A model generated the notes under the pieces. That model made no database searches. It was given only the letters and a program-made list of their open reading frames with translations, and had not been told where the DNA came from. Made by a program: the position numbers and the translations under genes. DNA of 64,000 bases from a virus: positions 32,001-96,000 of the IMG/VR virus record IMGVR_UViG_3300046167_000883. The stretch is one strand, 5' to 3'. This document shows, piece by piece, positions 7,090 through 32,183 of the stretch. Numbering within the stretch: the first letter of the stretch is position 1; every line of letters begins with the position of its first letter.

Positions 7090-9162
7090 TTATTGCGTGA
7101 ATGTTACGTTCTGCAAATCGAAACTAAAACCCAAATCAGCAACGATATCCGATCCAATTGCGGAATTATGGTTTTGCGAAATTAATTTTGCGTCGCTGAT
7201 TTGAAAATTAAAATCGTTTTCGCCATTGTCTTGGCTACTTATAGTCAAAGTGTAGCTCTCGTCAGAATTTAAAAAATCTTTTAAATTTGCTCTATCGCCG
7301 TTCACTTCAAAATTTGATACACGGTTAGAAAAATTAAATGTACTCTCAATAGGGAACAAAGCTTTTCTCGCTACAGGATGTTTCTTTCCTAAGCTGTATA
7401 TTGTTTTTCTGTTGATTGGCAGGTTCAAATCAAAGTTTTGAATAGAATCAGACTTAATTAAAAAATTGCCCACAGAATTACTTCCACTGATCGTTATATC
7501 AGTAGAGTAATGTGGCACAACCCTATCGGAGCTATTAGAATAGTATTCACCCACTCCAGATATGCTGGTAGTTAAATTTTGTGTTTGCGCCCCCGTTAAA
7601 TCAATAGACGGAACACTTACACCAGTATACAATAAACTATTAAAACCTACATCATGCGGATTAACTTCTTCGGCCTGAACATTGCTTGCAGTAAAAGAAT
7701 ACTGAGACTGCATCAAACCGTTAACAGATTGAGAAATAGAAATATTATTTAAAAAACAATTACCAAAAGATAAAAATTGCCCAAAAGATGTTTGGTTTTC
7801 TGGAAGATGCTCATCATTCCAACCGATCAAAATTTCTTCATCATAATCGTCATCATTTATGAAAAAGGCTACAGGTTTTGTAGATTCCATTTTCCACAAC
7901 CGTACACCAATTAGTGGATCAAAATCATAATTGGCCGCTGGGTTGGTTTTTGTTCCATCCAGATTAAACCCACTCCATAACTGCCAAGAAGAACTGTTAT
8001 AATATGAAATATTTACATCGGTATCTGGATACGGAGCAACTACAGTCCAATTTGGCGTGTCGGCGCCAATAGAACTTGACTCTGAAGATGCAAATGCTTG
8101 ATATTTTGTTAATTTATTGTAGCCAATATGCCCAGCAGCATCATTTCCCAAATTATCACCTATATCATTCGCAAAAGCTCCAGATGGATCATAAACATGG
8201 TAATTTGAAACTGTTTGGGGCGCACTATTTAATACATTAAATTCGTAATTATTTTTACGCTTATATACATCCGTTTCTACAGGTGCTAACAATAACTTAT
8301 CATCACTACCTTTTTTGGAACATAATATATTTTTAGTTGAATCAATAATTATTGTTGCTGTTGTTGTTGAATCTTCAAAAACGTAAGTTTCTCCAGCATT
8401 TAAAGAAGCCGAATAAGTTGCCGTCCCATTTATTCCATTAGTTACGTTTACATAAACATTCACATCAGTGTTATCTTCTAAAGATAATACTGAAATTCTG
8501 TTTGGCGCAAATCTGTTTGTGTGAAAACCAAACTGTTTTCCTGCCAGATAAAAAGGAATCAACGAGTTGTTATACCCCTCTCCGTGCCAATGTGTTGGCT
8601 TATCTCCATAGTAAACTTTTCCAGAGGTTACAGCTATTTCCACTCCAGTTGGTTCTGTATAAGTGTTTAAAACAGTTCTATTTGATCCATCAAAATCTTC
8701 TTCATATAAAGTGGTTCCAGAGTAAGGAACTGCCACATCCGTATTAGCAGAACTTAATGATTCAACACAATAATACCTAACATCATTAGCTGACCGATCT
8801 TTCCTTGCATCAACCCCTCTTTCTGGAGCAATATAAGCATAAAAATTTCTATCAATATTTAAATCATCTCTCGTATTCGCGCCACTAACCAAACCAGAAA
8901 ACAAATTACCAAAATCTTCAAAAATATTAATAGTGAAGTTCACATCTGGCGCATTTCTATTTGACTGATCAATAAAATTTTTAGCTCCTAATGCACCAAC
9001 ATTTGTTCTTGGAATATCTACGGAAAAATCAATCCCTTGAACAAGCGGTAGAAAAGATAAATTCTTAGCGCTGTTTGATCCAGTATCATGCGCTGGCGTC
9101 TGGCTTTGAAAAAGCGCGACATTTTCATAAGTAATTATTGGTCTGTCTGGATTAATTGCCAT
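7090..9162 (-). CDS. tail-tube-like minor tail protein with inserted beta-rich (IgGFc-binding-like) domain
   Basis: VQGIDFSVDIPRTNVGALG and IQNFDLNLPINRKTIYSLG..PVARK align by eye with the major tail protein; central insert SLEDNTDVNV...LNAGETYV...IDSTKNI. Confidence 0.6.
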   Translation of the reverse strand: MAINPDRPIITYENVALFQSQTPAHDTGSNSAKNLSFLPLVQGIDFSVDIPRTNVGALGAKNFIDQSNRNAPDVNFTINIFEDFGNLFSGLVSGANTRDDLNIDRNFYAYIAPERGVDARKDRSANDVRYYCVESLSSANTDVAVPYSGTTLYEEDFDGSNRTVLNTYTEPTGVEIAVTSGKVYYGDKPTHWHGEGYNNSLIPFYLAGKQFGFHTNRFAPNRISVLSLEDNTDVNVYVNVTNGINGTATYSASLNAGETYVFEDSTTTATIIIDSTKNILCSKKGSDDKLLLAPVETDVYKRKNNYEFNVLNSAPQTVSNYHVYDPSGAFANDIGDNLGNDAAGHIGYNKLTKYQAFASSESSSIGADTPNWTVVAPYPDTDVNISYYNSSSWQLWSGFNLDGTKTNPAANYDFDPLIGVRLWKMESTKPVAFFINDDDYDEEILIGWNDEHLPENQTSFGQFLSFGNCFLNNISISQSVNGLMQSQYSFTASNVQAEEVNPHDVGFNSLLYTGVSVPSIDLTGAQTQNLTTSISGVGEYYSNSSDRVVPHYSTDITISGSNSVGNFLIKSDSIQNFDLNLPINRKTIYSLGKKHPVARKALFPIESTFNFSNRVSNFEVNGDRANLKDFLNSDESYTLTISSQDNGENDFNFQISDAKLISQNHNSAIGSDIVADLGFSFDLQNVTFTQ

Positions 9163-11204
9163 TAGAATTCTGGGGTTACAGGAGCTACGATTTCTACGAA
9201 TCTTGCTTCAATTGTGTTTGAATCTTTGTAATTAAACGTGTGCTTCCATTGTGGGCAAAAGAATACTCGGTTTTGTTGAATAATATCATCGTCATAATAA
9301 TAAACAAACTGCTTATAACCAAGATGGGTTTCTAAAAAGTGTAGAATTGAATAAGTTTCCTTTTCGCTTCTATTTGTAAAAGTTAAGTCAAGTGCGTCTA
9401 TTCTGTTTTGATTGCGCGAAATATTTAGTTGTTGGGTAAACGACCTTTTAAAGTTATTAATTCTTGCCCCTTGGTCGACGGGCAATGAAACTTGTTGATC
9501 AGGTTCCCAGAAAAAAGTTCTGGTTAAACTGCCGCCATCATAAAAATCTCCATCACGATAATAAAGTTCATCAGCTATACCCGTGTAAGTTTTTAAACCT
9601 CTTATATTTGAATATGAATTAGTTATAATGGTACTTGAATTTTCTAAAACTTGTCCATTAGACGCATAAAAATAATTATTAAGTTGATTAGGATTTGCCC
9701 CCGTCACTTGATAAACATTAAATTTTTCATGAGAGCCGTCGACAAAGTAAAATTCATAACCCTGATAATCCCAAACTGGATATTTTAGTGAACTTTTTTG
9801 GACAAACCCTTCCCCATCATTTAAAACAGGAGAAACTCGGTCATTAAACATAGAAACATTTAACTCATAAACGTCGCTGCTAATATGTTTTAAATTATAA
9901 TTTGAAATTTGTGACCCACTAAAATTTTGATAATAATCTGTATCTAAATCTATTTGGACTCCGTGTTTTAATTCGCCAAAATTAATACAATCCTCTGTTC
10001 CTGAAAAAGCTACATCTCCAGTTATTGTACCAGTGGTCGCTTTTTCAATTCGGCGCAAAAGACTTTTCATATTTTTTTTGTTCCCTTGAAAAGTCAAATC
10101 CATCTCCGCTTTTATAGAGTTAAGTCCATTTGGCATAATGAACTGATAATAGTTAGACCCGCGCCAAGAAGAATTTGATGCAGAGAATGTTATAGAAGAT
10201 CCATAAATTGGAGAAACGCTTGAAGCTAAATAATCTAAATCTCTACCCAACCTATCCTGAATTTCTGAATATATTGTGGCCCTATCGTCTCTTAAAGATG
10301 TATAAAATAAAGCTTCTTGGAGCTTCCCTGTAAAAGTTTCGTCATAAGTTTCGTCAGATCCAATTGTCCCTACAATATAATTATCTCTTCCAGTTACAAC
10401 ATATCCAGAAATATAATTTTGACCGTCACCCAAACCAACCACTCCAGAGGAGTTGATTGAGTCAAATCCCGCAAATGCGTTTATAATATATCTTTGTCCA
10501 AGATTTACCTCTTCCCCAGTATAACCAAAACCATGCTGGTTGGCATCATTATCCTCCGCAATAGAGAAACCACTAAAAGAATTGGCTTGACCTCTTTCTG
10601 TATAAAGATAAAATCTATTACTATTACCTGTATATACAAAACCTACTCCAAAATCTTTTTTACCTCCACCATAATTTTCTCCAAAAATATAACTAGCTCC
10701 ATATGTATTATATTGATAAATTTCTTTCGCATCGTCACCAAGAGAAGCTATAGTAAAAGTTTCTAACCCATCAATCCCTAATATATGACTTGATAAATTT
10801 CCTGGTTCGTGAATACCATACCCTTCATTTTTTATAAGAAGGTAAGCATTCCTACCACCACTTCTAAAAATCATCGCGGGTTTATTGTTTAGTTCAACAA
10901 AACTGCCCCCAGTTATAATATACGGCATCACTCCAGTATTAATACCAGTCGCGTGTTTTCCGCCAAATTGATCATAAAATTTGGATACAACACCAATATT
11001 GTCTATATCCGCCTCTAAAGTACCATCTTTAAGGTCTGTAGCCGTATAAGATCCAGTTGTGTTTGTAGACACATTAACAACATCAACAACATATTGATTC
11101 GGATCACCATTAAGATTAAACAAAGAATAACCGTGATCAGGGATAGAATCATCTTCTACTACTATAAAATCCCTATTATAATTGAAATTTTCTATAAAAC
11201 TCAT
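9162..11204 (-). CDS. minor tail protein (gpM/Dit-like C-terminus, N-terminal YSL/FYDQ adhesin module)
   Basis: Directly follows the TMP; C-terminal FFWEPD...ILHFLETHLGYKQF...FFCPQWKHTF; N-terminal GYSL..DGTL..FYDQ module. Confidence 0.65.
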   Translation of the reverse strand: MSFIENFNYNRDFIVVEDDSIPDHGYSLFNLNGDPNQYVVDVVNVSTNTTGSYTATDLKDGTLEADIDNIGVVSKFYDQFGGKHATGINTGVMPYIITGGSFVELNNKPAMIFRSGGRNAYLLIKNEGYGIHEPGNLSSHILGIDGLETFTIASLGDDAKEIYQYNTYGASYIFGENYGGGKKDFGVGFVYTGNSNRFYLYTERGQANSFSGFSIAEDNDANQHGFGYTGEEVNLGQRYIINAFAGFDSINSSGVVGLGDGQNYISGYVVTGRDNYIVGTIGSDETYDETFTGKLQEALFYTSLRDDRATIYSEIQDRLGRDLDYLASSVSPIYGSSITFSASNSSWRGSNYYQFIMPNGLNSIKAEMDLTFQGNKKNMKSLLRRIEKATTGTITGDVAFSGTEDCINFGELKHGVQIDLDTDYYQNFSGSQISNYNLKHISSDVYELNVSMFNDRVSPVLNDGEGFVQKSSLKYPVWDYQGYEFYFVDGSHEKFNVYQVTGANPNQLNNYFYASNGQVLENSSTIITNSYSNIRGLKTYTGIADELYYRDGDFYDGGSLTRTFFWEPDQQVSLPVDQGARINNFKRSFTQQLNISRNQNRIDALDLTFTNRSEKETYSILHFLETHLGYKQFVYYYDDDIIQQNRVFFCPQWKHTFNYKDSNTIEARFVEIVAPVTPEF

Positions 11205-14200
11205 TTATCTACCTCTGCCGAATAATGAACCCGAAACCCTCTTTTCTTCATTAATTACATTGACTACTACTTCTTTGACTTTTCTTGCGAATTCTTTTGA
11301 TTGTGCTGGATTAGAACCATCGCTAGTTGCGTCTACCGTAGCTCCCCCATCCTTGGCCATATTGATTGTGATATTTACTTCGCCGACATCCGCGCCTTCC
11401 TTGGATGACCCACCAGAAGAGCTTGATGCCACATTTCCAACGGCTCCGCCGTTTTCGTAACGCATCATATTAATGCTGTCCAAAGTATCGCGACCAATAG
11501 CACTTGCAGCTTGTGCAGACATAACATATTCGCCGCCCATAAGAAGGGCGTTGGTGTTTCCAGACATTTCTCCGCCGTTTGCTCTGTTAAACAATGGACC
11601 CGTCAGTAAATTACGAGAAGAACCAGTGAGAGATCCCAAAGTGCTTGAGTTTAATTGATCCATACTCAATGCATCATACGCCCCACCAAAAGCTTTGTAA
11701 GGTTCACCAAGTGGTTCGCCCATAAATCCCTTAAGTCCTTGTGGTGTGGATGATGGTAAATTTTGAAAATACGCTCCAGCCCCAGCAGCAGCCGCATTCA
11801 CAAACGATCCAATTATAGCTTGTTTGAATTGCTCGTCCCTTGCTTTTTCTGCTTGCTTCTTTTCTTCTACAACTCTCGCTTCTTCTTCTACTCTTTGGGT
11901 GTATAAACCAAAAGCTTGTCTTTGTGCATCTTTTAAAGCTCTTCTTGCTGGGCTTTCTCTAAATCTACCAAACGTTGTTAATCTATGACTCTGATCCTCT
12001 AAACTAACAAACGCACCGCTTCCAGTAGATCTTGCTACATCTGTTTTTCCAGACGTTACTTCTTGTTGGGCGAAAGCTAACAAACTTTCCTTACCAACAA
12101 TTTCCCCTGCTCCACGAGTCCCAGGAACAAAGAAGTCCATACCTCTAGCTCTTTTTAATCTTTCGTTCGAAGCGGCGCCGCCGATTTGATTACCTGAAGG
12201 GTCGCTCCAAAATCTTCCACCTTCATATCCACCCGCTGTTTGGGTATAAAGGCCTCCACTTTGCATACCCCTAATCGCGCCAGAATTTAATCTCTCCAAG
12301 AAGTCTACTCCGTATTTTTGAACAGCAGACTTCTTGAGAACATATTCGCCACCAGTTAAAACAGCGGGTACGTCATCGCGAACACCAGATCCGCCAGTTA
12401 CCATTCCGCCAGAATTATATCCAGTTATAGCTTTAGATATTTTCCCTAAAAATCCTCCGCCAGCCGTCTCGTCTCCAAACATAGCATTAGTTAAATTCAT
12501 TGCCGTTCTTTGCGCTATTTGTCTTTGCAACTCTCTTCCAAAATTTAATGCAATTTGCAAGAATGCGTCACCAATAGAATCATAAGCGCCAGTAGCTATT
12601 TTTTCAAAAGTGTCGGCCATAGATTGCTCAAGATTTTCGGCTAAAACCCTTGGCAATTCATCCGCTTGGTTTTTAAGTCTCTCATCAACGTCCTGTGAAT
12701 ATCTTTGAAGTGAAGACATTTGAGACATTTTTTGCTGCTTATTTAAAATTTTCTGGTTCAGTTCATCCTGTACCCTTAGTTCATTATTTTGAGCCTGATA
12801 ACCTTTGACCTGTTTTTCTATTTCGTCTAAAGTATTTGTCTCGTCAAGCAACCCTTTTTCTTTTAAATCTAATACAGCTTGCAAAACTTCTTCGAATGAT
12901 TTCCCAGCCTCTATGGAGTCTAATAAAGTTTGATAATTCTTTTTATCAACAGCTTTACCCTCTAGGGCTTTAACAACATTACTACCTAATTGTGCGCCCA
13001 GTTTCGTTGAAGCTTTTGATTGACTGATTTTGAATTCAAGCAAAGCTTTGTTTGCTTCCAACCTTTCTCTCTCCAGGTCGCTTAGATTTCCCGCCAACTT
13101 CAGCTCTAGTTCGTTTGCTTTGAGTGTATTTTGTGCAAGTTGTACTTTTTGCTGATTATCTTTCGTTAATGGGTTCATCAAAAATTGATCACCACTTAAA
13201 TGCAGCCCAGATGCTGCGCCCTTTCTTTTTAATGACTCTAAATCCGAAGCGCGACTAGCTAGAGTTAATTTATCGCTTGCTGCGGCTTTTTTTTCTTGAG
13301 CTGTCATCGCTTCTGTTTTTGTAGCCTCTAGTAAATTAGTTATGAATGATGCTATATCCATAACATCTTCTACTTTCTTTCTGGAACCACGGCTAGAATA
13401 AACAACAGTTGTTTTTTTATTTTTTTCTGTTCTATCTACAACCTCTTGGAGCTTCTTTCTTCCTTCTTCACCTCCACCCAAAGCGGCAATAGCGGCTACC
13501 ATACTTTCTTTGTTTTTTATTCCGCCAAAAGCCCCTGTTGAAAGTCCTTCAATTCCCCTAAGTTGTTTTTCAAGAACTTTTTCAACGCTTGTGTCTGGGT
13601 CGGCTCCGACCTCTTCTCTTATTTTTCTTTCTCCTGTAATTCTATCCAACTCAGTCTGCAAACTAGCCCTAAACGACCGAACCGCTTCTACATTACCCTC
13701 AGAAAGTTTTACTAAATCAACACCCTCCAATTGTTGGTTTAAATTTTCAAAACCCGTTTTGGTTTTTGTTAACTCTAACAACAATGGGGCAACGACACCA
13801 GCAACCGCAACAGTAGCTCCAATTGCTGGCAAAGCCCTACCAGCCCCAGCTACAAACCTACCAGCCCCAGCTAATTTTCCTGACTTAACTGCGCCACCTG
13901 GTCCACGCCCAAGACTAGTTCCAAAATTTACTAACTTTGTACTAAGCTTGTCCAATGGTCCCTTTAACATAGCCAAACCAGATAACATTGATCCCGCTAA
14001 AGCTAACTCACTGACAAATTTACCTATACCACTCTCAGCCCCACTAAAAGCAGAACTTAAAAAACTTAAAGCTATAGAGGTGGTCATCAAGCGACCCGAA
14101 AAATCTTCCATCGACGCCGTCTGTTTTTTGTTGGCTTTAATCATTCCTTCTACCGTTTTTTCCAAACCTTTAGACATGGGCATATTAATCATACCACCTT

Positions 14201-17054
14201 GATTAAAGTTTGGAATTGCGCCAGTTGGCTCGTCTCTTGTGTTGGTAACAGCAAGACCCATTGGGTTTTGAGCGTTGCGGAGTTTTCCGTTTTGATTTAT
14301 TCTGATTTGATTAATCGGAAGACCTGCGGCCCGTTCTCTACCTACAGCATCTTCTAAAGCAGATTGAGCAAAGTTGGGGATGTAACCCCTAGCGGCTCTG
14401 TAATTTCCATAACGAGTTCTAAGTAAAGTATTAGCCCTTGACTCAATTAATTTTTCCAACCTATTTCTTGTGCTGAGGTCTAATCTTCTTTTTATTTCAC
14501 CTTTTTCCGTAAAATAGGTTCCTCCTGAACCGCCAAGCATATTCATTACTTGCTTTTTGGCTTGTAATTCTGCATTCTTTCTAGCTTCTTTCTTAAAATA
14601 TTCCTTCCTGTTCCCCTTAATGGAGTCGGCCCCAATTTCTTTCATTATTTTGGAGTAAAAACTTTCCACATTTCCAACCGAATCGGAAACTTTAAAATCT
14701 GCTACATTAACATTTTCAGGCAAGCCAAACAATTCTCTAACTCTTTGAATATTCCGACCTCCCCGTATATCGAAATCGCCGCCCTTTTCTCTTATAGCTG
14801 CCCTATAATCCAAAGCTTTTACAATCCCAACTTCAAAAGCAGAACCTATTGCTGCTTGCAAAGCTCCTTTTGCTCCAGCTATTGTTCCAAATCCGCTTTT
14901 AATATCAGCAGTTGAAACCGTTCTTCCCAAAGGTTGGAGTTCGTTAGCGTATTTTGTGGTTTGTTGAATTACACCTTCTTTAATCCTTTTCTCTATTGGG
15001 TCTGAGACTGTCTTTGCTTTGTTTGGTCGAATGCCTCTTGCTATAGCTCCTGTTAATGTTGTTTTTTTACCGCCTATCGAAGCGTCAAGTGGTTTTATTG
15101 GTTTATTCACTCCCATTTGTGGAACAAGAAATCCATAATTACTTACATCTTTTGGAACATATCCACCAGCCGCATTTATCTTTTTCGCTCCAGCGGGAAG
15201 CCCCATAGACCTAACCATATCTTGGTTAAAGATGGCATCTCCACCTCCAGCATAATTAGGGACATAATATTCGCTTGTATTAGCAACCATTGTGCCGTGC
15301 TTACCTCCACCAAAAGCAAAGTTTGGAATTGAAACTACTTTAGCGCTTGATGGTGCGCCACCAACTCCGCGAGAAACATCGCGAGCTTCGGCTGCGATAT
15401 ATCCATCAGCAGCTTTTCCCCTTCTTACGACCCCTTTTTCTCCACCCCTTAAGCCAGCGCCAAAAAGTCCAGGGGTTACAGCAGCAGCAGTCTTTTGAAC
15501 TTTCGCCAATGCTGCGGCTTGTTGGTTGTAAATTCTTAATAGCAATTGTTCTTGAGCTACTTTATTTCCTTCAAGTGCTAAAATCTCTCTTTGAATACTT
15601 TCGTTTTGAAGAAGCGTTTGAAGAACAGATTGTTGTAATGAGTTCTGCGCCTGTGTCGCTTTATTGATACCTAAAACTTGTTGTAGTGACTTCCCACCAA
15701 ACTTAGCCAAATCAATAAATAACTTTGAAAATATCGCCGTAACTATGGCAAGCCCTGGGCCAGTTAAAACTCCGCCTATACCCTTCACAATTCCTTGGGC
15801 GAATTTACTTCCTATTGAATCCCCTTGAAGTAAATCCGTAATTCCAGTGACGACAGAAGAGAAAGCTTTTAAAATATCTTTTGCGGCGTCTGTAAAACCA
15901 ATTTCTCCCATAATAGACGCTAACTTTTGTCCACCCGTTGTTAAATTATTTATTAAAGCTTCTAGGGTGTCATTAAGTTTGGCGTTCTTTGCGTCAAGAC
16001 TACCAGCAGCGCTGGCGGAAGTTTCAAGAGAATTAGCAAATTTGCTTTGTTCAGAATTTAAATCTTCAATTAAATTAATTAAAATGTCACGCTGCCTAAC
16101 ACCAGCAACTTTTTGAATAATCTCGCCAGCTTGGACGCTTTTTAATCCCATCTTATCAAGCTCTGTGGCCAACTCTTGGAATAAAGGAATTGCATCTCTT
16201 ACATTTCCTTGGGTATCTAAAACAGAAATTCCTATATCCTGAAGAGCGGCGAGTGTGTCCGTTCTCCCCATTCTTGCAAAAATGGTTTTAAAGGCGTTAC
16301 CAATAACCGCGCCACCTCGCTGAGTTCTTTCTTGAACTGTGGTTATAACACCCAAAAGCTCATCAAATGAAACACCTGCCACACGAGCGGATGCAGATGC
16401 TCGCTCAAGACCATTAATCAAATCTTCGGTAGATACAGCGAACTTTGTATCAACTTCTGCAAGTTTATCTGCGATCTGGGCCACCGTTAGTCCCGCGCCC
16501 TCAAAACCTTTAATTGCGGCAGTAAGACCTGCCACAGCTTGCTGAGAATCAATGCCAGCCACCCGAACAAGTTTCAACGCCGTTTCAACACGAGAAAGAG
16601 ACTCTTCAACACCTAAACCTTGGCGAGCTAACTCTAACGCACCTTCAGCTACTTGATCAAAAGATGTCGCTGTATTTTGGGCGACCTTAAAAATTCCATT
16701 ACCAAAAGCTTCTAATTCTTTTCTGGTTCCACCAAGAATTGTATTAATTTTTGCAAAAGTCGCTTCCACCTTAACTGTGTTAGATACAAGCGCACCAAAA
16801 GCTTCAGATAGTTTATTAATTACAGCAACAGATGCACCGAAAGCTAAAACACGAGCGTTAGAAGCTTCTAAGGATTTCTGGAACTCGGTGGCTTGTCCAG
16901 TAATCTTGCCCAACGGACGAGAGAGTTTATTAATTGATTCGGCGCCCTTGCCAAAGTTAACTCCTTTCGCTTGGGCTTGTATCCTAGCCAATGCTGCGTC
17001 CACCTTTGTAGTATTTACTGGGGTGAACTCTACTCCTACTCTTGCTCTTGCCAT
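11205..17054 (-). CDS. tail tape measure protein
   Basis: 1949 aa, Ala/Gly/Leu-rich helical; TP901-type core (ELARQG, DKLAEVD, GGAVIGNAFKTIFAR); C-terminal GGMVTGGSGVRDDVPAVLTGGEYV. Confidence 0.92.
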   Translation of the reverse strand: MARARVGVEFTPVNTTKVDAALARIQAQAKGVNFGKGAESINKLSRPLGKITGQATEFQKSLEASNARVLAFGASVAVINKLSEAFGALVSNTVKVEATFAKINTILGGTRKELEAFGNGIFKVAQNTATSFDQVAEGALELARQGLGVEESLSRVETALKLVRVAGIDSQQAVAGLTAAIKGFEGAGLTVAQIADKLAEVDTKFAVSTEDLINGLERASASARVAGVSFDELLGVITTVQERTQRGGAVIGNAFKTIFARMGRTDTLAALQDIGISVLDTQGNVRDAIPLFQELATELDKMGLKSVQAGEIIQKVAGVRQRDILINLIEDLNSEQSKFANSLETSASAAGSLDAKNAKLNDTLEALINNLTTGGQKLASIMGEIGFTDAAKDILKAFSSVVTGITDLLQGDSIGSKFAQGIVKGIGGVLTGPGLAIVTAIFSKLFIDLAKFGGKSLQQVLGINKATQAQNSLQQSVLQTLLQNESIQREILALEGNKVAQEQLLLRIYNQQAAALAKVQKTAAAVTPGLFGAGLRGGEKGVVRRGKAADGYIAAEARDVSRGVGGAPSSAKVVSIPNFAFGGGKHGTMVANTSEYYVPNYAGGGDAIFNQDMVRSMGLPAGAKKINAAGGYVPKDVSNYGFLVPQMGVNKPIKPLDASIGGKKTTLTGAIARGIRPNKAKTVSDPIEKRIKEGVIQQTTKYANELQPLGRTVSTADIKSGFGTIAGAKGALQAAIGSAFEVGIVKALDYRAAIREKGGDFDIRGGRNIQRVRELFGLPENVNVADFKVSDSVGNVESFYSKIMKEIGADSIKGNRKEYFKKEARKNAELQAKKQVMNMLGGSGGTYFTEKGEIKRRLDLSTRNRLEKLIESRANTLLRTRYGNYRAARGYIPNFAQSALEDAVGRERAAGLPINQIRINQNGKLRNAQNPMGLAVTNTRDEPTGAIPNFNQGGMINMPMSKGLEKTVEGMIKANKKQTASMEDFSGRLMTTSIALSFLSSAFSGAESGIGKFVSELALAGSMLSGLAMLKGPLDKLSTKLVNFGTSLGRGPGGAVKSGKLAGAGRFVAGAGRALPAIGATVAVAGVVAPLLLELTKTKTGFENLNQQLEGVDLVKLSEGNVEAVRSFRASLQTELDRITGERKIREEVGADPDTSVEKVLEKQLRGIEGLSTGAFGGIKNKESMVAAIAALGGGEEGRKKLQEVVDRTEKNKKTTVVYSSRGSRKKVEDVMDIASFITNLLEATKTEAMTAQEKKAAASDKLTLASRASDLESLKRKGAASGLHLSGDQFLMNPLTKDNQQKVQLAQNTLKANELELKLAGNLSDLERERLEANKALLEFKISQSKASTKLGAQLGSNVVKALEGKAVDKKNYQTLLDSIEAGKSFEEVLQAVLDLKEKGLLDETNTLDEIEKQVKGYQAQNNELRVQDELNQKILNKQQKMSQMSSLQRYSQDVDERLKNQADELPRVLAENLEQSMADTFEKIATGAYDSIGDAFLQIALNFGRELQRQIAQRTAMNLTNAMFGDETAGGGFLGKISKAITGYNSGGMVTGGSGVRDDVPAVLTGGEYVLKKSAVQKYGVDFLERLNSGAIRGMQSGGLYTQTAGGYEGGRFWSDPSGNQIGGAASNERLKRARGMDFFVPGTRGAGEIVGKESLLAFAQQEVTSGKTDVARSTGSGAFVSLEDQSHRLTTFGRFRESPARRALKDAQRQAFGLYTQRVEEEARVVEEKKQAEKARDEQFKQAIIGSFVNAAAAGAGAYFQNLPSSTPQGLKGFMGEPLGEPYKAFGGAYDALSMDQLNSSTLGSLTGSSRNLLTGPLFNRANGGEMSGNTNALLMGGEYVMSAQAASAIGRDTLDSINMMRYENGGAVGNVASSSSGGSSKEGADVGEVNITINMAKDGGATVDATSDGSNPAQSKEFARKVKEVVVNVINEEKRVSGSLFGRGR

Positions 17055-19104: not shown

Positions 19105-19563
19105 ATGCCAACCTCATATATATCAGACGCCCTAAAAACACAACTCCAAGGAACTATAGATAATCTACACGAAACCTTCGCCAGAACAATCACTGTTTAT
19201 GAAGAAGGAGAAAAAGTTTTAATCGCAGCGAGTTCTACATATAATGGTGTTTATGGCAAAACAAACACAGGAAACACCTCAGTTTCTAGAACAGTTGTTT
19301 CACATAGCATTAAAGCTAGAATTAAATATATAAACGCTAAAGACGAGACTTTATCCGACAGCGAAATAAACTCTCAACCAGATATTGATTTAATTAACGG
19401 ATCTGTAAGAATTACAGTTGATCCAAGTGGATTTGAAATTCTCAAAGAGGCAAAAAGGTGTGAATTTGAAGGGCGCAAATATGAAATTTCAAGCAAGGGA
19501 AGTGCAACTGGAATGCTTGGCCCACAATATTATCACTTTTTCCTAAAGCCTCTAGATGAGTAA
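19105..19563 (+). CDS. putative head-closure/stopper protein
   Basis: Size, beta-rich C-terminus (FEGRKYEI...YYHFFL) and position before the neck and tail tube genes. Confidence 0.5.
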   Translation: MPTSYISDALKTQLQGTIDNLHETFARTITVYEEGEKVLIAASSTYNGVYGKTNTGNTSVSRTVVSHSIKARIKYINAKDETLSDSEINSQPDIDLINGSVRITVDPSGFEILKEAKRCEFEGRKYEISSKGSATGMLGPQYYHFFLKPLDE

Positions 19564-20149
19564 TTACGAATACTACACAGAAATTCGAACAATTTTAGAA
19601 AATCAAATACCTGGACTTGCAAGAAATCAGGTACAAAAACTTTTTCGTACAGCTTTTCAGAAAAAGAAAAACCAAATGATTTCTGAGTTTTTAAACCACC
19701 CCGTGACAAAAGAGATTGAGATGGGAATAAACGCAAAAAATATTAGCGGCACACTTGGCGGCGGCAGTGGCAATCTTTTTTCTTTTATTGGTTTTGAAGA
19801 AGGATACGATCCAATTGGCCCAATTGAAGAGGTTTTACTTAGAACCGACTTTAAACTTACAAAAGTAACAAAAAGAGAAATTGAATTTTCTGTAATCCTC
19901 CCAGAGCCAAGAGATGTTTTTTCCGTCACCCCCATGCCTTGGGCAAGTGGCAGAAGCTGGGCAAAGGGCATCGAAACAGGAATATCTGGACTTGGATACT
20001 ATTTATTAAAATCAACTAAAAACAGTAGATCTGGTTTGGGTATCCAATCCCCTCGCAAAGTTAGAAAAAAGTCAAGATTTAAGAATACTCAATACATCAC
20101 AGCTTTCATAAGGAAGTACGAAAAAGAATTTTCCAACTTAGAACTATAA
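19556..20149 (+). CDS. putative neck/tail-completion protein
   Basis: Basic 197-aa protein between the stopper and terminator positions. Confidence 0.45.
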   Translation: MSNYEYYTEIRTILENQIPGLARNQVQKLFRTAFQKKKNQMISEFLNHPVTKEIEMGINAKNISGTLGGGSGNLFSFIGFEEGYDPIGPIEEVLLRTDFKLTKVTKREIEFSVILPEPRDVFSVTPMPWASGRSWAKGIETGISGLGYYLLKSTKNSRSGLGIQSPRKVRKKSRFKNTQYITAFIRKYEKEFSNLEL

Positions 20150-20165
20150 GTGTAAATATATTTTA

Positions 20166-21017
20166 ATGAAGCCGCAATACCAGCATAAAGTAATTACAAG
20201 TTTCCTTTTGTGGTTTGATAACCATCTTCTAAAAAAAGGAGAGGCTTATTCAAATAAAACTGGCACACTACACTACCTTGACGACTCAAGATTACCAGAT
20301 TCTTACAAAACTTATTCAAGCCCCTACAAGCAGTGGGTTACAGATAGCTCTATAGTTGGTTCTGAAAATCCGATTATCCCCACACAATTCATGGGTAGCG
20401 GAAGAAATGATGGTATCATTTTTGATTTTGAAAATGGTAGAATTATTGAAACGGGCGGCAGTTTTGACACGCAAGAAACAATTACTGGGACTTTTGCGGT
20501 AAAAGATTTCAATATCTATCTCACAAACGAAACAGAAGAAGATTTAATTTTAGAAAACAAATTTGTACAAAACAGTAGATATGGCGATTCTGAAAACGGA
20601 ATTAAACCATACGATCAAGTTGTGCCAGCTATTTTTATTAATAGCGAAACTATTCAAAATGTCCCATTTGCTTTTGGCGGAGAAGATGAAACAAGAATGA
20701 CGATTAAAGCTGTTGTTTTGGCAGAAGATTCTTACAGCTTAGATGGTGTGCTTTCCATCTTTGCCGACTCAAGACACGAAAATGTTAATATAATTCCATT
20801 CAGCGGTCACCCCGCCACAGAATACGGAGACATCAAAAACGGCTCCTATAACTATACAGACCTCATCAATACCCACAAGGGTTCGGAAGTTCCTTTATAT
20901 ATTGAAGATGTGGTCGTATCAAAACTTTCAGATAAAGCACAAAAACAATCCATAGGGGATTTAAAGGTTGGTTTCATTGATTTTGATGTATATCAGCATA
21001 GGTTCCCTAGATTATAA
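20166..21017 (+). CDS. putative tail terminator protein
   Basis: Directly precedes the tail tube gene; VPAIFI...PFAFGG pattern. Confidence 0.5.
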   Translation: MKPQYQHKVITSFLLWFDNHLLKKGEAYSNKTGTLHYLDDSRLPDSYKTYSSPYKQWVTDSSIVGSENPIIPTQFMGSGRNDGIIFDFENGRIIETGGSFDTQETITGTFAVKDFNIYLTNETEEDLILENKFVQNSRYGDSENGIKPYDQVVPAIFINSETIQNVPFAFGGEDETRMTIKAVVLAEDSYSLDGVLSIFADSRHENVNIIPFSGHPATEYGDIKNGSYNYTDLINTHKGSEVPLYIEDVVVSKLSDKAQKQSIGDLKVGFIDFDVYQHRFPRL

Positions 21018-21060
21018 ATTTCACATTTAACTTAAAAAACTGTAAACAATATAAAATATC

Positions 21061-22167
21061 ATGGCTAGAAATCGAGTAATTTATCAATCCGAAGCTTTGT
21101 ACGTCAGTGAAGATGCTTCTTCAACTGCGAAAACAAAGCACGAGCAACTCCAAAGAGTTCAATCCGCGAACTATTCCTTTAATATTTCGCGTCAAGACAT
21201 CAATCAGTATGGTCAACTTGGTCGCATTGATTCTGTTGTTTTAGAAGCACCAACGGTATCTTTTGATACGAGCTACTATCTTGGCGATGGTTTCAATGAG
21301 GAAGCTCTTGGGTTTGGCGAAGATAGTGCCTTTGGGGTTGGTTTTGCCTCTGGTCACATGACAGCAACATCTGGCAAAAATCTTTACATTTTGACATCTC
21401 CAGAAGGTGTTGATACAATCCAAAATGATTCAGGTAGTTCTGTAATTGGAATTGGCAACGCTTATTTAACCGATTATACACTTGACGCTTCTGTTGGATC
21501 TATCCCAACGGTTTCTGTATCCTTTGAGGGCGCTAACATCGCAGCAGATAATGCTATTAGTGGTAGCGCTGCTGGTTATAGTGGATTTAGCACCTGCGCA
21601 ATTAAAACAGATGACGGAACTAAATTAACTAATGCAGTTACATTGCCAGCAGCTACAACTGGTGTAGGTTCAGTTACAGCGCTTCGTCCTGGCGACATTT
21701 CAATTGATTTTGGAGACGCTTCTTCACAGGCTGAAGACGGCCCGATTGTTAACATTGATTCAGATGAAGACGGCGCCCACATTCAAAGCGCGTCTCTCTC
21801 AATTGGGATGTCTCGTTCACCACTTGAAAGACTTGGAACTAAGTTCCCGTTTGCAAGAACTGTTGATTTCCCAGTAACCGCCTCCCTTAGTGTTTCTGCT
21901 ATCGTCAATGAAGTTACGGCTGCAAACCTTGCCGATATTATTAGCGGTCAAGATGCAACTACTATTCAAGTGACCTTTAAAGACACTAACGGAACTGCTG
22001 CCGCTTCCTACAAGCTCGTTGGCGCAAAACTTGATTCAGAATCCTTTAGTTCTGCAATTGGTTCCAACAAAACTGCTGATCTAACATTCTCAGTTCAAAT
22101 TGGTGGTCCAAACGATACAACTAATAATATTCTGTTCTCTGGAGCAAACTCAACTACTCCATTTTAA
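21061..22167 (+). CDS. major tail (tube) protein
   Basis: Ser/Thr/Gly/Ala-rich 368 aa; has its own strong promoter (CTGTAAACAATA) and a UUCG terminator. Confidence 0.75.
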   Translation: MARNRVIYQSEALYVSEDASSTAKTKHEQLQRVQSANYSFNISRQDINQYGQLGRIDSVVLEAPTVSFDTSYYLGDGFNEEALGFGEDSAFGVGFASGHMTATSGKNLYILTSPEGVDTIQNDSGSSVIGIGNAYLTDYTLDASVGSIPTVSVSFEGANIAADNAISGSAAGYSGFSTCAIKTDDGTKLTNAVTLPAATTGVGSVTALRPGDISIDFGDASSQAEDGPIVNIDSDEDGAHIQSASLSIGMSRSPLERLGTKFPFARTVDFPVTASLSVSAIVNEVTAANLADIISGQDATTIQVTFKDTNGTAAASYKLVGAKLDSESFSSAIGSNKTADLTFSVQIGGPNDTTNNILFSGANSTTPF

Positions 22168-22192
22168 TAATATATACTAAATAAACTTACTA

Positions 22193-22218
22193 GCCGCCCT
22201 TCGGGGCGGTTTTTTTTT
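22193..22218 (+). terminator. rho-independent terminator
   Basis: GCCGCCC-TTCG-GGGCGGT followed by T8. Confidence 0.9.
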
Positions 22219-22233
22219 GTGTAAATAAACTAT

Positions 22234-25200
22234 ATGGCAAGAAATAGGACAATCTACCAATCAGAGGCTATTTATGTTAGCGATAATATTAATTCAATTA
22301 CTAAATCAGAACATAAAAACATAAGTAGGGTACAATCTGCAAATTATGGATTTTCTATTAATAGAGAAAGGGTTAACCAATACGGCCAACTTGGTGAAAT
22401 AGATTCTATTGTAGTTGAGGCGCCAAATGTTGACTTTGAAATGTCCTATTATCTCACCAATGGGGATAATGAATACTTTTTAAATTTGGATACTGGTTAT
22501 GGCGGCTTTTTAAAAAATCAAATAATAAGTTCTGGCCAAAATATCTACATCGCTAACACAAAAGAAGGTTCTGATATAAACGACACAAGCGCCAATGACT
22601 TTAATGTCATTAGTATCGGCAATGCGTTTGTAACAGATTATACAGTAGATTTTGGCGTCGGCTCCCTGCCCAAAGTAAATGTCGGATTCTCTGCTTTAAA
22701 TATTTCCTCTCAAACAAATCTAACAAAAACATCTGGTCATTTTGTTGGTATTGAAAACGCGGGTGTTAATCCACTGAACGGAGTTAAAAGCACACAACAA
22801 ATAGAAGTTCTAGCTGAAATTAATCAATCTGGACAAAGCGCAATTCGTCCATCCGATACATCCATAACAATCACCCCAACAAAAACGCTTGGGGATAACG
22901 ATTCAATATCAATCCTCTCAACACTTGATAGTGGCGCACATATTCAGACAGCTTCGCTTAATGTAAATCTAGATAGAACAAGTTTGCAAAGATTGGGTAG
23001 TAATCTCGCTTATGCTAAAGTTGTAGAACCTCCTACAAATGCCACCGTTTCAATTAGCGCTATAGTTAACGAAGTTAAATCTTCATCTCTTTCTGATATT
23101 TTAGATCACTCAAACGAATATACAATCGAGATAGAATCAGTAGATCCAGACGGATATCAGTTATGTAAGTATTCTTTAGTTGGTGCAAAATTAGACTCAG
23201 AATCTTTTGGCTCTGCCATTGGATCAAATAAAGTTGTTGATTTGACTTTTACAACTCAGTTGGGCGGAATTGGTCAAACTAACTATAATATGTTTTTTGA
23301 GAAATATGGGTTCTTGGATTTCTTCCCTTCAGCAGCCGCCGCATATTCTCTTAGAAATTTAACCGCAGACTTTGATCAAAAAATTGTTAGAGTTCGTAGA
23401 GAATCTGACAACTCTGAAAGAGATTTTACCGAATACGATATTAAAAACGGCACAATGGTTGATTGGGTTAATAAGCAAGTTATTCGCCCATTAGATATTC
23501 GAAAATTGGATGACGCAAATGGCAACCGTCCAGATACAAACGATTTTATTGATACTCCCGCCGCCGCTTATTCTCTTCGTAGTTTAGGGGAGAACCAAGC
23601 AAATATAACAATTGACGATTCTAGCGATGAGAGAGACGGGGAAACTGGAAAGTTCGTAGTACAGACGCGCCGCAACGTGGACGGAGCCACCAAGAGCTTT
23701 ACCGCTGACGAGGTTACTGACGGTACGCTGGAGAATTTTGTAAGTACTGGTGAGGTTGTTTATTCCAGCGACTTCAGCGTGAACGCAAACAACGTAATCC
23801 ACAATGTTGGTGCAACCAAATTAAGTGTAACTGGAAACAATGATGGAATAAGTGACGGCTCCGTCACTAAGGACAATGTACTGAAGGTTGAAAACATTGG
23901 TGATGTTCCTGCTGCCCCGCAGCTTAGAATTAACACCGATGAGTACGAGGACTCAACAAAGGGTTCGGTTACCTTTACTTATTACGTACCAACTGGTCAT
24001 CCTATTGTTGGCAACTACTGGCACATAGGTGCTTCCTTGGCTGTTGATGGAACTGAGACATCTTACTCTCCTGCTGGTGTTCAGATTGTAGGAGGTGTTT
24101 GGACTACAGCTACAGTTGCTTACGAGAACAAGCCAAGTACAAAACGATTTTTAACAATCATTGACGAGGAAGTAGCTGACGGTACTGCACCTGCATTTAT
24201 TCCAGAGGGTGATGTTGGTGACTTCTATTACATCAGTGAAATCAAAGTGTACCGCAACGAGGAGCTAGGGCTTCCTCTTGACCAAGCTACAGGAGCAGCA
24301 GCGGCTTACTCCCTGCGTAACCTTAGCTCAAGCTACACTGGTGATGTTGTAGAGGTACGCCGTAACGTGGACGGGGAGACTGAGGGCTTTACCGCTGCCG
24401 AGGTTACTGACGGTACGATGGAGAAGTGGGTCGAAGGTTGGGAACTTTATACACCCAGTACCAAGACGCTTATAAATGAGCCATACTGGGATTTGATTCC
24501 TACTGATAATCAAAACTTTCAGATAATAAGTAACAATGCTGACTCCGAAAGTGCAAGCTGGCGGCAAGTTAGCTTGGTTAATTCGCAAGACCTTAGAGTT
24601 GGAAAAACCCTAGTTACATTCGATGTAACGGTTAATAGTGGTACACTTAGTACTGGCAACACGGACACTTCACTTTCTTTATACGGAAGGGATGGTTCTT
24701 TAGATGGCAATATTTCTGATATTAAGCAGCTTAGTGAAGGGTTTAATTCGCATATACTGGAAACCGTTGACAACGCATTTGGTCACGTTCCAGATATTTT
24801 CTTTTCCAGCGGACCAAATAGTAAGTTTGACGTAACAATCTCCAACCTCAAGGTCTACAAAAGCGTCGTCAACGAGCTTCCTCTTGACCAAACAAACTCT
24901 TATTCCTCCGTAACCTTTACTGGGACTTGGGCTGAAGCCAAGGCTCACGCTGAGGCTAACGGGGGGAGACTTGCTGTTTTAGATACGCAACAAAAAATTG
25001 ATGCAGCCAATAAATATTTACTGTCCTTGGGAAGCTGGGGGACTCATTGGATTGGGTTAAGCGACATTGATACCGAGGGTTCATTTACTTGGATAACTGG
25101 CAAGGGACTTACCGCGAACCAATGGAAAGACGGCGAACCTAATAATGCTGGAGATGAGGATGTTGTTGAAATTGTAAACGGTGACACTTCAACTGGTGTG

Positions 25201-28200
25201 CGCGGTTGGAATGACAGTAAAGTAACAACTATAAGAAACTTTTATTTGTTTGAAACGCAGGAATCCAAAGCAGCTTACTCCCTGCGTAACCTTAGCTCAA
25301 GCTTCACTGGCAATGTGGTTGAGGTACGCCGTTCAAGCGATGATGCATACACGGAGCTTTACGGCATCCGAGGTTGCTGATGGTACGCTGGACGGATTGG
25401 GTGAATGCGGAGATTGTTCACTATGAATCCGATTTCAGTGAAAATACTAATGGGTGGAATGTAACTGATGGGTCACTGTCGGTGTCAGATGGGGCTATGG
25501 TTCTTGCGCCTAATACGAGTTCAACTACTCATTTTGCGAACAGATCCTCTAGTCTTCCCGTAGGTAAAAAACTTAGGGTCACCTTTGATGTAAAGATTCC
25601 AAGCGGTCAATCTATTGTTACTGGATTTAGAGCCACTGAAGTTAGCGGCGCTTTAATCAAATATGTTACCAGTCAAACTCAGGGTGAGTTTGTTAGCTAC
25701 TCAGAAGAAATAACTCCAACCAACACTGGGTTAATAAGATTTTTTGCCGCCACAAACACGGGCGGAGGCGTAACATTCAGCGGTAATGACTCAGAAAAGC
25801 TAATCATTAAAAACATTGTCGTAACAGTCATTGATGATGACGGACACGTCAGTACTTGGTACGACCAATCAGGCAGCGACAATCACGCAGTGCAGACGGA
25901 TACTGCAAAGCAGCCTAAGATTGTTGAGGGTGGTACGCTACTAAAGGATTCCAATAATAATCCAGAGGTTGTGTTTACTAGAGGTGATGCTCAATTCCTG
26001 ACAGCTTCATCACCCATAGCATTTAATGACGTATTCTTTAAGTTTAGACGTACCGATGCGACTAACGCGACCAACGGTATACTTACTGAAGCATCCAGTG
26101 GAGTATACCCCTACACTTATATCCATCACTCCAGTCAAACATTTTCGTTTGATGGGAATGCAAGTGACACGGTAAACTTATCCTTTAATGGTCAGTACGA
26201 GGAAAACCAAAGTACTGACAAGGGTGGGCTTGTTACTATTGATGACCACTTAGTTTATCTAAACTACACAAGCAATCCAGATGCCATCAGCGATATTGGT
26301 AAGTTGTATAATGGCTCCCCTATTTATGGTAGCTTTGGCGCAGGTGAGTTTATTTTCTACGACTCCGACCAGTCAACAAAGCGCAGAGCTATTGAGGAGA
26401 ACATCGCTAATCACTACGACATTTCCCTAGCAGCCTTCTCGCGGGATGGTACAGTCAAAACTTGGTACGACCAGAGTGAAACCAATGGTGTACCTAATGC
26501 CAATCACGCAGTGCAGACTGACCCTACGAAGCAGCCTAAGATTGTTGTGAATGGGAATCTGTTGGAGGATGGTGTCACATTTGACGAAGCCAATGAAACA
26601 GAACTCAAAGTTACTGGTGACCCAGTTATTACTGCGGACTATACTGGTACTTATAGTGCATTCAGTATTCAAAAGATTAGCAATAGTGAGTCTGGTTATT
26701 TGTACGGGAATGCATCTCCATCGGATGGCTCTTCAATTTATAATAATGGTTCTAATTACGCGGCGACCAACAAAAACAATGCGGCACTTGATGAAATAAG
26801 TAAAACCAGTTCCAAAAATTTACTGTCAGCTGTGTATAATAATGGTGACGCTGGGCTATTAGTAAACGGTGATGGGACAATGGTCGACCAGGGTACTTAT
26901 GACTTTAATGCTGGGACATCTGATTTTATTATCGGAAATAGAAACGGAGGGTCAGAGGCATCTCACTATTTAGATGGAACCATTGCTGAAATCATCATCT
27001 ACAACTCCGACCAGTCAACAAAGCGCAGAGCGATTGAGGAAAACATCGCTAATCACTACAACATTTCTCTAGCAGCCTTCTCGCGGGATGGTACAGTCAG
27101 TACTTGGTACGACCAATCAGGCAGCGACAATCACGCAACTCAGACTGACCCTACGAAGCAGCCTAAGATTGTTGATGGTGGTAGTCTATTAAAGTTAAAT
27201 GGTAAACCATCTATTGATTTCTCTACAGTTGATGGCTACCTTGAACTTAGCCAAGAAGTGGATACTAGCAATAAACCCTGTTCAATTATTGCGGCTACTG
27301 AACCAACAAATAAAGCTTTAATTGGTCAAACTTCAAATCGTCGTCTAGTTTTCAACTCTTCTGATGCTAGATTTGGATTAAGCGTTTCAGCGATAACTGA
27401 GGACTACCCTTCGGTAAGCGGAGGTGCTGTGTTTACGGCTATTCACAACGGAACAACAACTGCTCCTAATGTTGTAATTTACGCAAACGGAAGTGCCTCA
27501 ACAACAAATGATTCAAATCAAGGTTCACCTATGACCGTTGGTGTAATTGATTTCATAGGGGTTAACCTTGGTTCTGCTGTTATTTCTTATTTTGATAAAA
27601 AATTACCAGAAGTAATCATCTACAACTCCGACCAAACAGCCAACCGTACAGCTATTGAGGCTAACATAGGTGAGACCTACGGCATTACTGCAATCCCTGC
27701 TGCTAACGATACAGTCAACGGCTTCGTGCAGACGTGGTACGACCAGAGCGGTAGTGGCAATGACGCGGAGCAGACGACTGCCTCGAAGCAGCCTAAGATT
27801 GTTGTGAATGGCACTTATCTAGGAGAGATAAAGTTTGAGAATGGATTGTACGTACAAAAGACAGGTCTTAGTCTAAGTGGACCATTTTCTACATTTTCTT
27901 TATCCAACGCTAACTCTCAACATAATGGAGCGTTATTAAATTTTGGTACTAGTTTTTCACAGCAATACCGAAGTAACCTAAGCCTCCTATTGCAATATGG
28001 TGACACGAACTTCTCAAGTGCAGGCGCGTATACCGTAGGGGAGCAAAACGTAATGAGCTTCATCTTCGACACAACTGGCTTAGGATACTACAATGGTACA
28101 GAAGTAATTAATGATGCGACTACTGGTGCTACCGCAACTCAATTTAGAGTCGGAAATAGTCCGTTTGGTCTAGATGGGGATGTTAAGGAAATCATCATAT

Positions 28201-28277
28201 ACAATTCAAACCAATCAGCCAATCGTCCTGCTATTGAAGCTAACATCGCCAACCAGTACGGCATTACCCTATCTTAA
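22234..28277 (+). CDS. giant tail protein/adhesin: tail-tube paralog fused to nested ConA/LamG-like modules, CBM-like inserts and a C-type lectin (split by two +1 errors near 25348 and 25391)
   Basis: N-terminal ~350 aa is paralogous to 21061 (MARNRxIYQSEA). Removing two bases restores RRSSDDATRSFTASEVADGTLTDWV, which matches the three sister repeats and joins ORFs 22234..25380 and 25374..28277. Confidence 0.8.
25848..27180 (+). repeat. near-identical direct repeats at adhesin module junctions
   Basis: 26362-26472 matches 27004-27114 (ACTCCGACCAGTCAACAAAGCGCAGAGC...GCAGCCTTCTCGCGGGATGGTACAGTCA); 25848-25889 = 27096-27137 (GTCAGTACTTGGTACGACCAATCAGGCAGCGACAATCACGCA). Confidence 0.85.
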
Positions 28278-31478: not shown

Positions 31479-32183
31479 TTATCCAAGGATATTTTCGCGG
31501 CTAAATGCAGCAGCGAACTTCTCCTTCAAAGTTGTTTTTGAAGCTTGAGCTTCGTTGTTATTAGGAAGAGCTTCTTCTGTAGCTTCTGCATTTTCAAGAG
31601 CTTCTTCAACGTCTACTTCTTCAGCAACTGCTTCTTCTTTAGCTTCAGTAGCTTCTGATGCTTCTGCTGTGTTGAGGCGCTTTTCGATTTCAGCTTCGAC
31701 GCGAGCGGCGATAGCTTCTTCTTGTTTTGCTTTAGCTTCCTTGTTTTTCGATGCCCAGAAAACAGCAAGCTCATCCTTAAATGATGCAAAAGACTCTTCG
31801 GTGTCATCAAGACCCTTAATCTTTTCTGCAATAAATGAGCTATCGCTTTCTTCAAGATCGTAAATGGAATCAATTTCTTCCATACGAGCATTGAAGCGAG
31901 CAACTGCTTCTTCAGCCTTCTTTTCCGCCTCGAAAGATTCGATGCGCTCTTGAGCAGCTTTAAGTTCCTCCTTGATAGCCTCTACGGAAGCTTGAAGCTC
32001 TTCTCTCGCAGAAGCGATTTCAGCCTTCTCTTGTTCCGCAGCTTCAAGAGAAGCTTTGTACTCATCATCTTTTTGTTTAATGGCATCAGCAAAAGTTGCA
32101 GTCATGCCAGCGATAGCCTCTTCAGAGAATTTCTTCTCAGTAAGCGAGGCTTTGATTTCTGATAGTAGAGTTTCTAAGTCCAT
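31479..32183 (-). CDS. nested in-frame scaffold protein (internal start MDLETLL)
   Basis: ATG 32183 sits at the protease/coiled-coil boundary and is preceded by CTGTAAACAATACTAAAATC, nearly identical to the tail-tube upstream sequence. Confidence 0.65.
   Translation of the reverse strand: MDLETLLSEIKASLTEKKFSEEAIAGMTATFADAIKQKDDEYKASLEAAEQEKAEIASAREELQASVEAIKEELKAAQERIESFEAEKKAEEAVARFNARMEEIDSIYDLEESDSSFIAEKIKGLDDTEESFASFKDELAVFWASKNKEAKAKQEEAIAARVEAEIEKRLNTAEASEATEAKEEAVAEEVDVEEALENAEATEEALPNNNEAQASKTTLKEKFAAAFSRENILG

Follow-up and report, generated by a model that had tools for sequence, protein, structure and literature searches.

How can a phage protein fold when four copies of the first part of a domain are followed by four copies of its second part? 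This question is raised by a gene at positions 22234-28277 (plus strand) of a 64,000-nucleotide (nt) stretch from a marine siphophage-like virus (IMG/VR record IMGVR_UViG_3300046167_000883, positions 32,001 to 96,000), the whole of which we call the window. The longest contig listed for it measures 113.7 kb. The gene sits in a plus-strand block (19105-28277). With a probability of about 0.72, we regard it as one virion gene whose product combines a tube-like N-terminus with four lectin-type domains of the GH54 fold, nested one in another from N4-C4 at the centre to N1-C1 on the outside. We infer sugar binding and a location on the tail tube, and the most likely role of the protein is adhesion to polysaccharide or to the host surface.

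The gene is covered by two open reading frames (ORFs), ORF1 at 22234-25380 (1,048 amino acids (aa), P0001) and ORF2 at 25374-28277 (967 aa, P0002), and once two one-base breaks are read through, its product comprises ~2,010 aa. An earlier note, made from the sequence of this stretch, had placed four N-halves and then four C-halves in the gene, and the translation proved all of these motif positions right. The N-half motif, AAYSLR..VRR..DGT..WV, shows its AAYSLR at ORF1 aa 369, 444, 690 and 1013, with starts at nt 23332, 23557, 24295 and 25267 when the preceding alanines are included. The C-half motif, TWYDQ..QPKIV..IIYNSDQ..AIE.NI, shows its TWYDQ at ORF2 aa 161, 363, 577 and 787 (nt 25854, 26460, 27102 and 27732), and every TWYDQ is followed by KQPKIV and then by the terminal I(I/F)Y(N/D)S(D/N)Q..R.AIE.NI. 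Hidden Markov models (HMMs) built from the window copies detected exactly four N and four C in the gene, and no more. This layout is far above chance, and the N-then-C order recurs in hundreds of homologs. The gene is laid out as follows.

22234-23298, plus strand: tail-tube-like domain at the N-terminus (ORF1 aa 1-355), paralogous to the product of a 368-aa ORF upstream
23332-23478, plus strand: N1, outermost N-half (aa 367-415; HMM E 1e-23)
23557-23751, plus strand: N2, of the long type, carrying a 15-aa insert (aa 442-506; HMM)
23752-24294, plus strand: passenger P2, ~180 aa, between N2 and N3, ending in the LPLDQ linker that opens the next unit
24295-24441, plus strand: N3 (aa 688-736; HMM E 5e-25)
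24442-24891, plus strand: passenger P3, ~150 aa, with a counterpart in the homolog L002 and a related one in P0032
24892-25263, plus strand: cysteine-free C-type lectin domain bearing EPN and WND (Pfam Lectin_C, PDB matches)
25264-25403, plus strand: N4, innermost N-half, broken by two single-base insertions (three-frame reading)
25404-25841, plus strand: passenger P4 at the tip, ~146 aa, between N4 and C4 (Atlas clusters)
25842-26447, plus strand: C4, predicted partner of N4 (ORF2 aa 157-358; HMM E 4e-39)
26448-27089, plus strand: C3, predicted partner of N3 (ORF2 aa 359-572; HMM)
27090-27710, plus strand: C2, predicted partner of N2 (ORF2 aa 573-779; HMM)
27720-28277, plus strand: C1, predicted partner of N1 (ORF2 aa 783-967 plus stop codon; HMM)

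The most alike N-halves are N3 and N4 (70% protein identity; DNA 91% over 64 nt), and the tails of C3 and C4 are nearly identical (70% protein; DNA 91% over 129 nt). The C-halves are conserved at their ends and variable in their cores, which share 22-32% identity between the window copies.

Models of homologs support the view that one N-half and one C-half together would form a single beta-sandwich of the GH54-catalytic or LamG type. The ConA/LamG-like fold claimed in the earlier note was thus right, and is more exactly that of the GH54 catalytic domain (Z 22-23), as found in alpha-L-arabinofuranosidase B (Aspergillus AbfB, 1WD3/6SXT; PF09206). The models of two homologs, P0018 and L002, matched this domain with Z 22.5-23.4 and a root-mean-square deviation (rmsd) of 2.6-2.8 over 244-249 aa (chain residues 17-334). 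In the Pfam scan, window N4 reached 23.9 bits against PF09206 (ArabFuran-catal), below the cutoff of 25 and over profile positions 13-44 only, and ORF2 gave no PF09206 match. The homolog P0031 passes the same cutoff with 28.6 bits, its colinear match reaching from N2 across into the first C (profile 13-149), and both PF09206 and PF13385 are precomputed on several homologs. Since PDB sequence searches with ORF2, P0031 and the NNNCCC profile yielded no GH54 match, the GH54 link rests on Pfam and the fold. The phage proteins also differ from GH54 enzymes in that sequence identity is only ~18%, the window proteins lack the CBM42 arabinose-binding domain and their Pfam match is sub-threshold; furthermore, the enzymes are contiguous single domains, whereas nesting is predicted in the phage family.

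On the LamG/ConA side, the outer domain of the homolog models aligned with single jelly-roll domains (Z 17-18, 185-200 aa), and Foldseek returned laminin LG and neurexin LNS domains with E 1e-10. PHROG 10356 matches ORF2 four times, and its neighbours in BFVD are phage proteins that resemble LamG or ConA. In the LamG arrays of distant relatives, the first strand lies directly upstream of the W.D.SGNGN strand. On the basis of this strand position and the PF09206 colinearity in P0031, we interpret the N-half as a jelly-roll first strand to which a hairpin and two helices have been added, and place the insertion site where it meets the TWYDQ strand. In the 40-protein alignment A1, the invariant columns are located in the head and tail motifs; this confinement, together with the variable C-half cores, argues from the sequence for binding over catalysis, without settling it.

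Which N-half pairs with which C-half was addressed with AlphaFold2 monomer models of two intact three-level homologs, structurally aligned by VIA-align, whose ranges give the first and last aligned residue only. The passenger-free P0018 (NNNCCC, 843 aa) was modelled from a 40-sequence alignment with a mean predicted local distance difference test score (pLDDT) of 80.2, with the N-halves at ~90, and a predicted template modelling score (pTM) of 0.75. Its inner domain (N3 and the first C) aligned over model residues 163-416 with chain residues 17-334 of GH54 (1wd3/6sxt; Z 22.5, rmsd 2.8, 244 aa), and its middle domain (N2 and the second C) over 76-631 with the Pan3 tailspike (9vyh_p; Z 18.3, 211 aa). 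The outer domain (N1 and the last C) aligned over 24-839 with the single jelly rolls of AbnA and of neurotoxin binding fragments (Z ~18, ~185 aa, rmsd 2.3-2.8). The three ranges are therefore nested, 163-416 within 76-631 within 24-839.

The other homolog, L002, is an intact 1,227-aa adhesin from an IMG/VR contig; it carries two passengers and shares 80% identity with the window across the P3 region, and its residues 28-1227 were modelled with pLDDT 74.5 and pTM 0.64. Its inner level again matched GH54 (Z 23.4; the 246 aligned aa fall within model residues 272-650), with a ~125-aa passenger looped out, and its outer level matched jelly rolls (~200 aa aligned within model 1-1198). In the passenger-free proteins, moreover, 3-5 aa separate the last N from the first C, a spacing shared with single-domain relatives, and this establishes the innermost pair without recourse to a model. 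A guest of the same fold is thus enclosed by its host over at least two levels in the homolog models, as predicted for recursive nested insertion, and the identical motif layout suggests the same pairing in the four-level protein of the window. The order N1[N2[N3[N4-C4]C3]C2]C1 put forward in the earlier note is accordingly supported by the nested ranges of two homolog models and by a family-wide balanced order of N and C.

For the family as a whole, a profile of the four window C-halves retrieved 15,166 cluster representatives at E <=1e-3 and 768 at <=1e-30, and 237 relatives from the ORF2 search and the C-half profile search were parsed with the N and C HMMs. The counting of halves in homologs, which the earlier note had recommended as a check, gave equal N and C counts in 151 of the 237 proteins, and all 151 show a balanced-bracket order (43 expected if random); a minority of complete homologs did not follow the rule. 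C exceeds N in 47 proteins and N exceeds C in four. Many of the unequal-count proteins are truncated contigs or have divergent N-halves, and some complete ones are true exceptions; collapse of near-identical N repeats in short-read assembly is a possible cause of unequal counts. The forms NNCC and NNNCCC are common, and NNNNCCCC, tandem NCNC, NCNCNC and mixed forms also occur. By motif order, P0362 (3,102 aa) reads N7 C5 N C3 with a depth of 7, and P0124 (3,508 aa) carries nine N and nine C with a depth of 5. The strings of the giant relatives P0362, P0124, P0125 and P0363 are balanced yet branched, so that the grammar allows several guests per host. Most family members begin with a ~28-aa leader.

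Under the nested reading, each domain would consist of an N-half of ~50-65 aa, which contributes three strands along with two short helices, and a ~200-aa C-half, which supplies the remainder of the jelly roll and a C-terminal helix, with the next domain and any passenger inserted in the loop between them. The chain would run outward through N1-N4, turn at the CBM-like tip passenger P4 and return through C4-C1, and the domains would close from the inside out, in the order N4-C4, N3-C3, N2-C2, N1-C1. The expected product is a two-stranded stalk of lectin-like beads that displays exchangeable binding modules (CBM-like, an EPN C-type lectin and, in a relative, a beta-helix). If this is true, N1 waits ~1,600 residues for C1, and the outer domains close only after the inner parts have been made. 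Some tube rings of this phage would likewise bristle with long lectin arms. To the wider proposition we give about even odds: a large family of marine phage adhesins would be built by recursive self-insertion of a lectin domain into its own N-terminal loop, with a balanced-bracket grammar that permits branching and spans depths from 1 to at least 7, with inside-out folding, and with a rigid stalk of two strands whose tip cassette is exchangeable, here fused to a tail-tube paralog.

Several observations weigh against the nested reading. The models cover the homologs P0018 and L002, rather than the four-level protein of the window, and as monomer models they would be compatible with pairing between chains; furthermore, the middle level of L002, which contains a low-confidence insert, is absent from the top VIA-align rows. 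Balanced order means that no C lacks a preceding N, and does not distinguish nesting from crossing. A between-protein distance-matrix correlation of each N with each C position gave no usable pairing signal (N2-Cmid 0.56, N3-Cfirst 0.20, N1-Clast 0.15). When the window levels were mapped onto P0032 and P0005 in search of co-gained N and C, the cores were found to be shuffled among positions (the core of window C1, for example, is that of the second C of P0005), and the orthology of levels is therefore unreliable. There are also complete homologs with unequal counts, namely NNCCC in P0064, P0105 and P0017 and NNNCC in P0068. P0064 has no room for a hidden N-half, so that some C-halves may fold alone, or the contigs may be mis-assembled.

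These points bear on two other ways of joining the halves. The halves might pair one to one without forming an intramolecular nest, being swapped between neighbouring subunits of a tube ring or fibre, or crossed in parallel so that N1 meets the first C. Any scheme that places N before C fits the balanced order, the N-halves are so alike that sequence hardly specifies the partner, and an oligomeric ring is probable if the N-terminus is a tube subunit. We nevertheless consider such pairing unlikely, since both monomer models close the inner and outer domains within one chain at the confidence given above, their alignment ranges are nested rather than crossed, and the short N-to-C spacing of passenger-free proteins fixes the innermost pair. 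A second proposal is that the N-halves are independent small repeats of a linker or stalk, the C-halves self-sufficient tandem LamG domains, and the equal counts a product of duplication history. Complete proteins of unequal count (NNNCCCC as well as NNCCC and NNNCC), the distant relatives P0130 and P0171, which are pure LamG arrays with no recognisable N-half, and the called ORF at 42539, which stops soon after its N-half, are all in keeping with it. The strand just upstream of W.D.SGNGN in such arrays is the counterpart of the N-half, however, the GH54 structures align from chain residue 17-18 across the N-half into the C-half, the PF09206 profile is colinear over the N/C junction, and none of the 151 equal-count proteins puts a C ahead of its N; on this evidence, independent halves appear highly improbable.

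A different doubt concerns the integrity of the gene itself. Two one-base insertions fall within N4, an extra T at ~25344 and an extra G at ~25389-25390, and the ORF boundary arises there; reading three frames in turn restores a normal N4 (VRRSSDDA, then TRSFTASEVADGTL, then TDWVNAE). The gene could be truly split, with ORF1 (tube and outgoing arm) and ORF2 (return arm) expressed separately, or it could be a decaying pseudogene; if split, the two products might zip together non-covalently via N1-C1, N2-C2 and N3-C3. The insertions are <=46 nt apart, the break falls exactly at the hairpin apex and leaves each arm whole, an ATG at 25380 has a GAGG ahead of it, and a second family gene of the window likewise has two frame breaks, all of which could be expected of a split or dead gene. 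The relatives P0032, P0005 and L002, on the other hand, are uninterrupted over the region equivalent to N4. Contigs from four seawater runs are fragmentary over the repeats, and no near-identical one spans both breaks; some lack the extra base at 25390, although other copies or relatives may be their source. The family genes of the window contain four single-base breaks in total, two in the giant gene and two in 42539-44047, and this number in two repeat-rich genes of one metagenomic contig resembles assembly or consensus error, which we judge more likely than real decay. We thus regard a split or dead gene as rather improbable.

The passengers inserted at the junctions had been called CBM-like in the earlier note. 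For P4 there is a lead in this direction, its nearest Atlas clusters being viral and CBM_4_9-bearing (score 0.95, a lead only), and the L002 passenger is looped out of the inner domain as the claim implies; P2, P3 and P4 all gave no Pfam match. The L002 counterpart of P3 is all-beta in the model, and the related passenger in P0032 shares 38% identity. The C-type lectin matched PF00059 (Lectin_C) at aa 898-995 with E 1.1e-8 and 36.3 bits against a cutoff of 22.6. Its EPN and WND Ca2+/sugar motifs were seen in the translation and in the PDB alignments, and the usual disulfide cysteines are absent. The best PDB relatives of this domain, which lies between P3 and N4, are animal domains of the mannose-receptor and DC-SIGN type (E ~1e-10).

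A close relative from a JGI metagenome, P0005, carries the same lectin before its N4, and its N4 and C4 are 73% and 92% identical to those of the window. At its tip, ~500 aa of beta-helix-like repeats (aa 355-878), possibly a depolymerase, replace P4. In the seawater runs X1 and X3, contigs join ~25392 or ~25411 straight to ~25841-25854 and so omit ~445 nt of P4, which suggests passenger-free variants of the innermost domain in the same waters. Taken with the beta-helix swap in P0005, these joins indicate that the tip loop behaves as a cassette site. A natural scaffold with such a site at its tip, able to take a CBM, a C-type lectin or a beta-helix, is relevant to how marine phages recognise their hosts and to the engineering of protein display.

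The N-terminal 355 aa are probably a tail tube protein, as judged from sequence relationships. ORF1 aa 1-355 shares 44% identity over 362 aa (E 4e-102, BLASTP) with the 368-aa product of the neighbouring upstream ORF (21061-22167, plus strand), and is distantly related to a 690-aa protein at 7090-9162 on the minus strand (27% over 260 aa, E 2e-11). The latter, which has a large internal insert, would be a third paralog, and its gene adjoins that of a gpM-like protein. The 368-aa protein has >3,400 close metagenome relatives (marine, 55-93% identity), none of which has a name or a Pfam domain, and hence represents an abundant unannotated phage structural family. Atlas neighbours of the tube-like domain partly carry Phage_tube_2 (12-15% of members), and the commonest sub-threshold matches among 30 relatives were DUF2001 (3/30, best E 0.019) and Phage_tail_2 (2/30). 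No above-threshold match to a tube protein came from Pfam, PHROG, a PDB profile search or tblastn against phage genomes. The tail-tube subunit named in the earlier note thus rests on paralogy and on weak but consistent family hits.

The gene lies at a distance of ~2.3 kb from the tape measure block, and its transcription diverges from that of the tape measure gene (1,949 aa, 11205-17054, minus strand). Among the family, the tube-domain fusion is common only to P0032, an intact fusion of the form NNNCCC, and in L002 the tube-like gene stands free, as the last of the tail module. No intact tube fusion of at least 1,835 aa turned up when one was sought, which is weak evidence. Decorated tail tube proteins, in which a tube subunit bears a projecting C-terminal accessory domain, include lambda gpV with its C-terminal Ig-like domain and T5 pb6. 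The window protein differs from these in that its appendage, at ~1,650 aa, is five times its tube-like domain, and its tube identity is weakly supported; a plain tube-like paralog is also encoded next door, so that the fusion is probably a minority subunit.

The one documented case of recursive nesting that we found is SI3 of the cyanobacterial RNA polymerase beta' subunit, in which hybrid-motif domains are recursively nested, up to six levels in Prochlorococcus rpoC2 (PMC13114784). SI3 follows the same A1-B1-C-B2-A2 principle of one fold inserted recursively. It differs in its small, unrelated fold, in belonging to a cellular enzyme and in being fixed within a lineage, whereas the phage family varies in depth from 1 to 7 and carries exchangeable tip passengers. 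Among phage proteins, the likeness is to those of the LamG/ConA type (Laminin_G_3 PF13385, PHROG 10356): chain p of the tailspike of the cyanopodophage Pan3 (9VYH) fits the middle domain, and gp059 of Synechococcus phage S-CBS4, a single-module homolog, is annotated as a virion structural protein. Both are single contiguous domains, unlike the nested forms predicted here. Nesting of k N-halves with k C-halves is not annotated in the libraries searched, and within our partial coverage of the literature we found no paper describing nested lectin domains in phage proteins. The nested N/C arrangement in phage lectins thus appears to be new, while the fold, single-domain virion relatives and recursive nesting in SI3 were already known.

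Recursive self-insertion of a domain is very rare, and here it would occur in a large, fast-evolving family with depths of 1-7 among relatives, which makes the evolution of nesting comparable across natural variants. The family also poses a folding problem, with partner segments up to 1,600 residues apart, and domain callers that assume contiguous domains will mis-describe nested proteins.

Finally, the window contains three family genes, of depths 4, 1 and 1, the two outside the giant gene being the following.

42539-44047, plus strand: second family gene, with one N and one C and an insert in the WYDQ-QP loop (HMM; frame changes at ~43240 and ~43440)
9162-11204, minus strand: gpM-like minor tail protein with a degenerate contiguous N and C module in its first 315 aa (HMM)

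The gene at 42539 begins with a ~95-aa leader, and its N-half stands directly before TWYDQ, as expected from the contiguous module that the earlier note had described there. The called ORF is not intact, however, and is cut short by a frame break; the remainder of the C-half can be followed up to 44047 in two further frames, with a ~100-aa insert between WYDQ and QP.IV that is also present in the second C-half of L002. The degenerate module claimed for 9162-11204 was recovered, with N at aa 25-64 (E 1.8e-6) and C at aa 71-315 (E 4.5e-9, filters off), ahead of a Phage_min_tail domain at aa 563-672. The same lectin domain is thus also carried by a baseplate-proximal protein.

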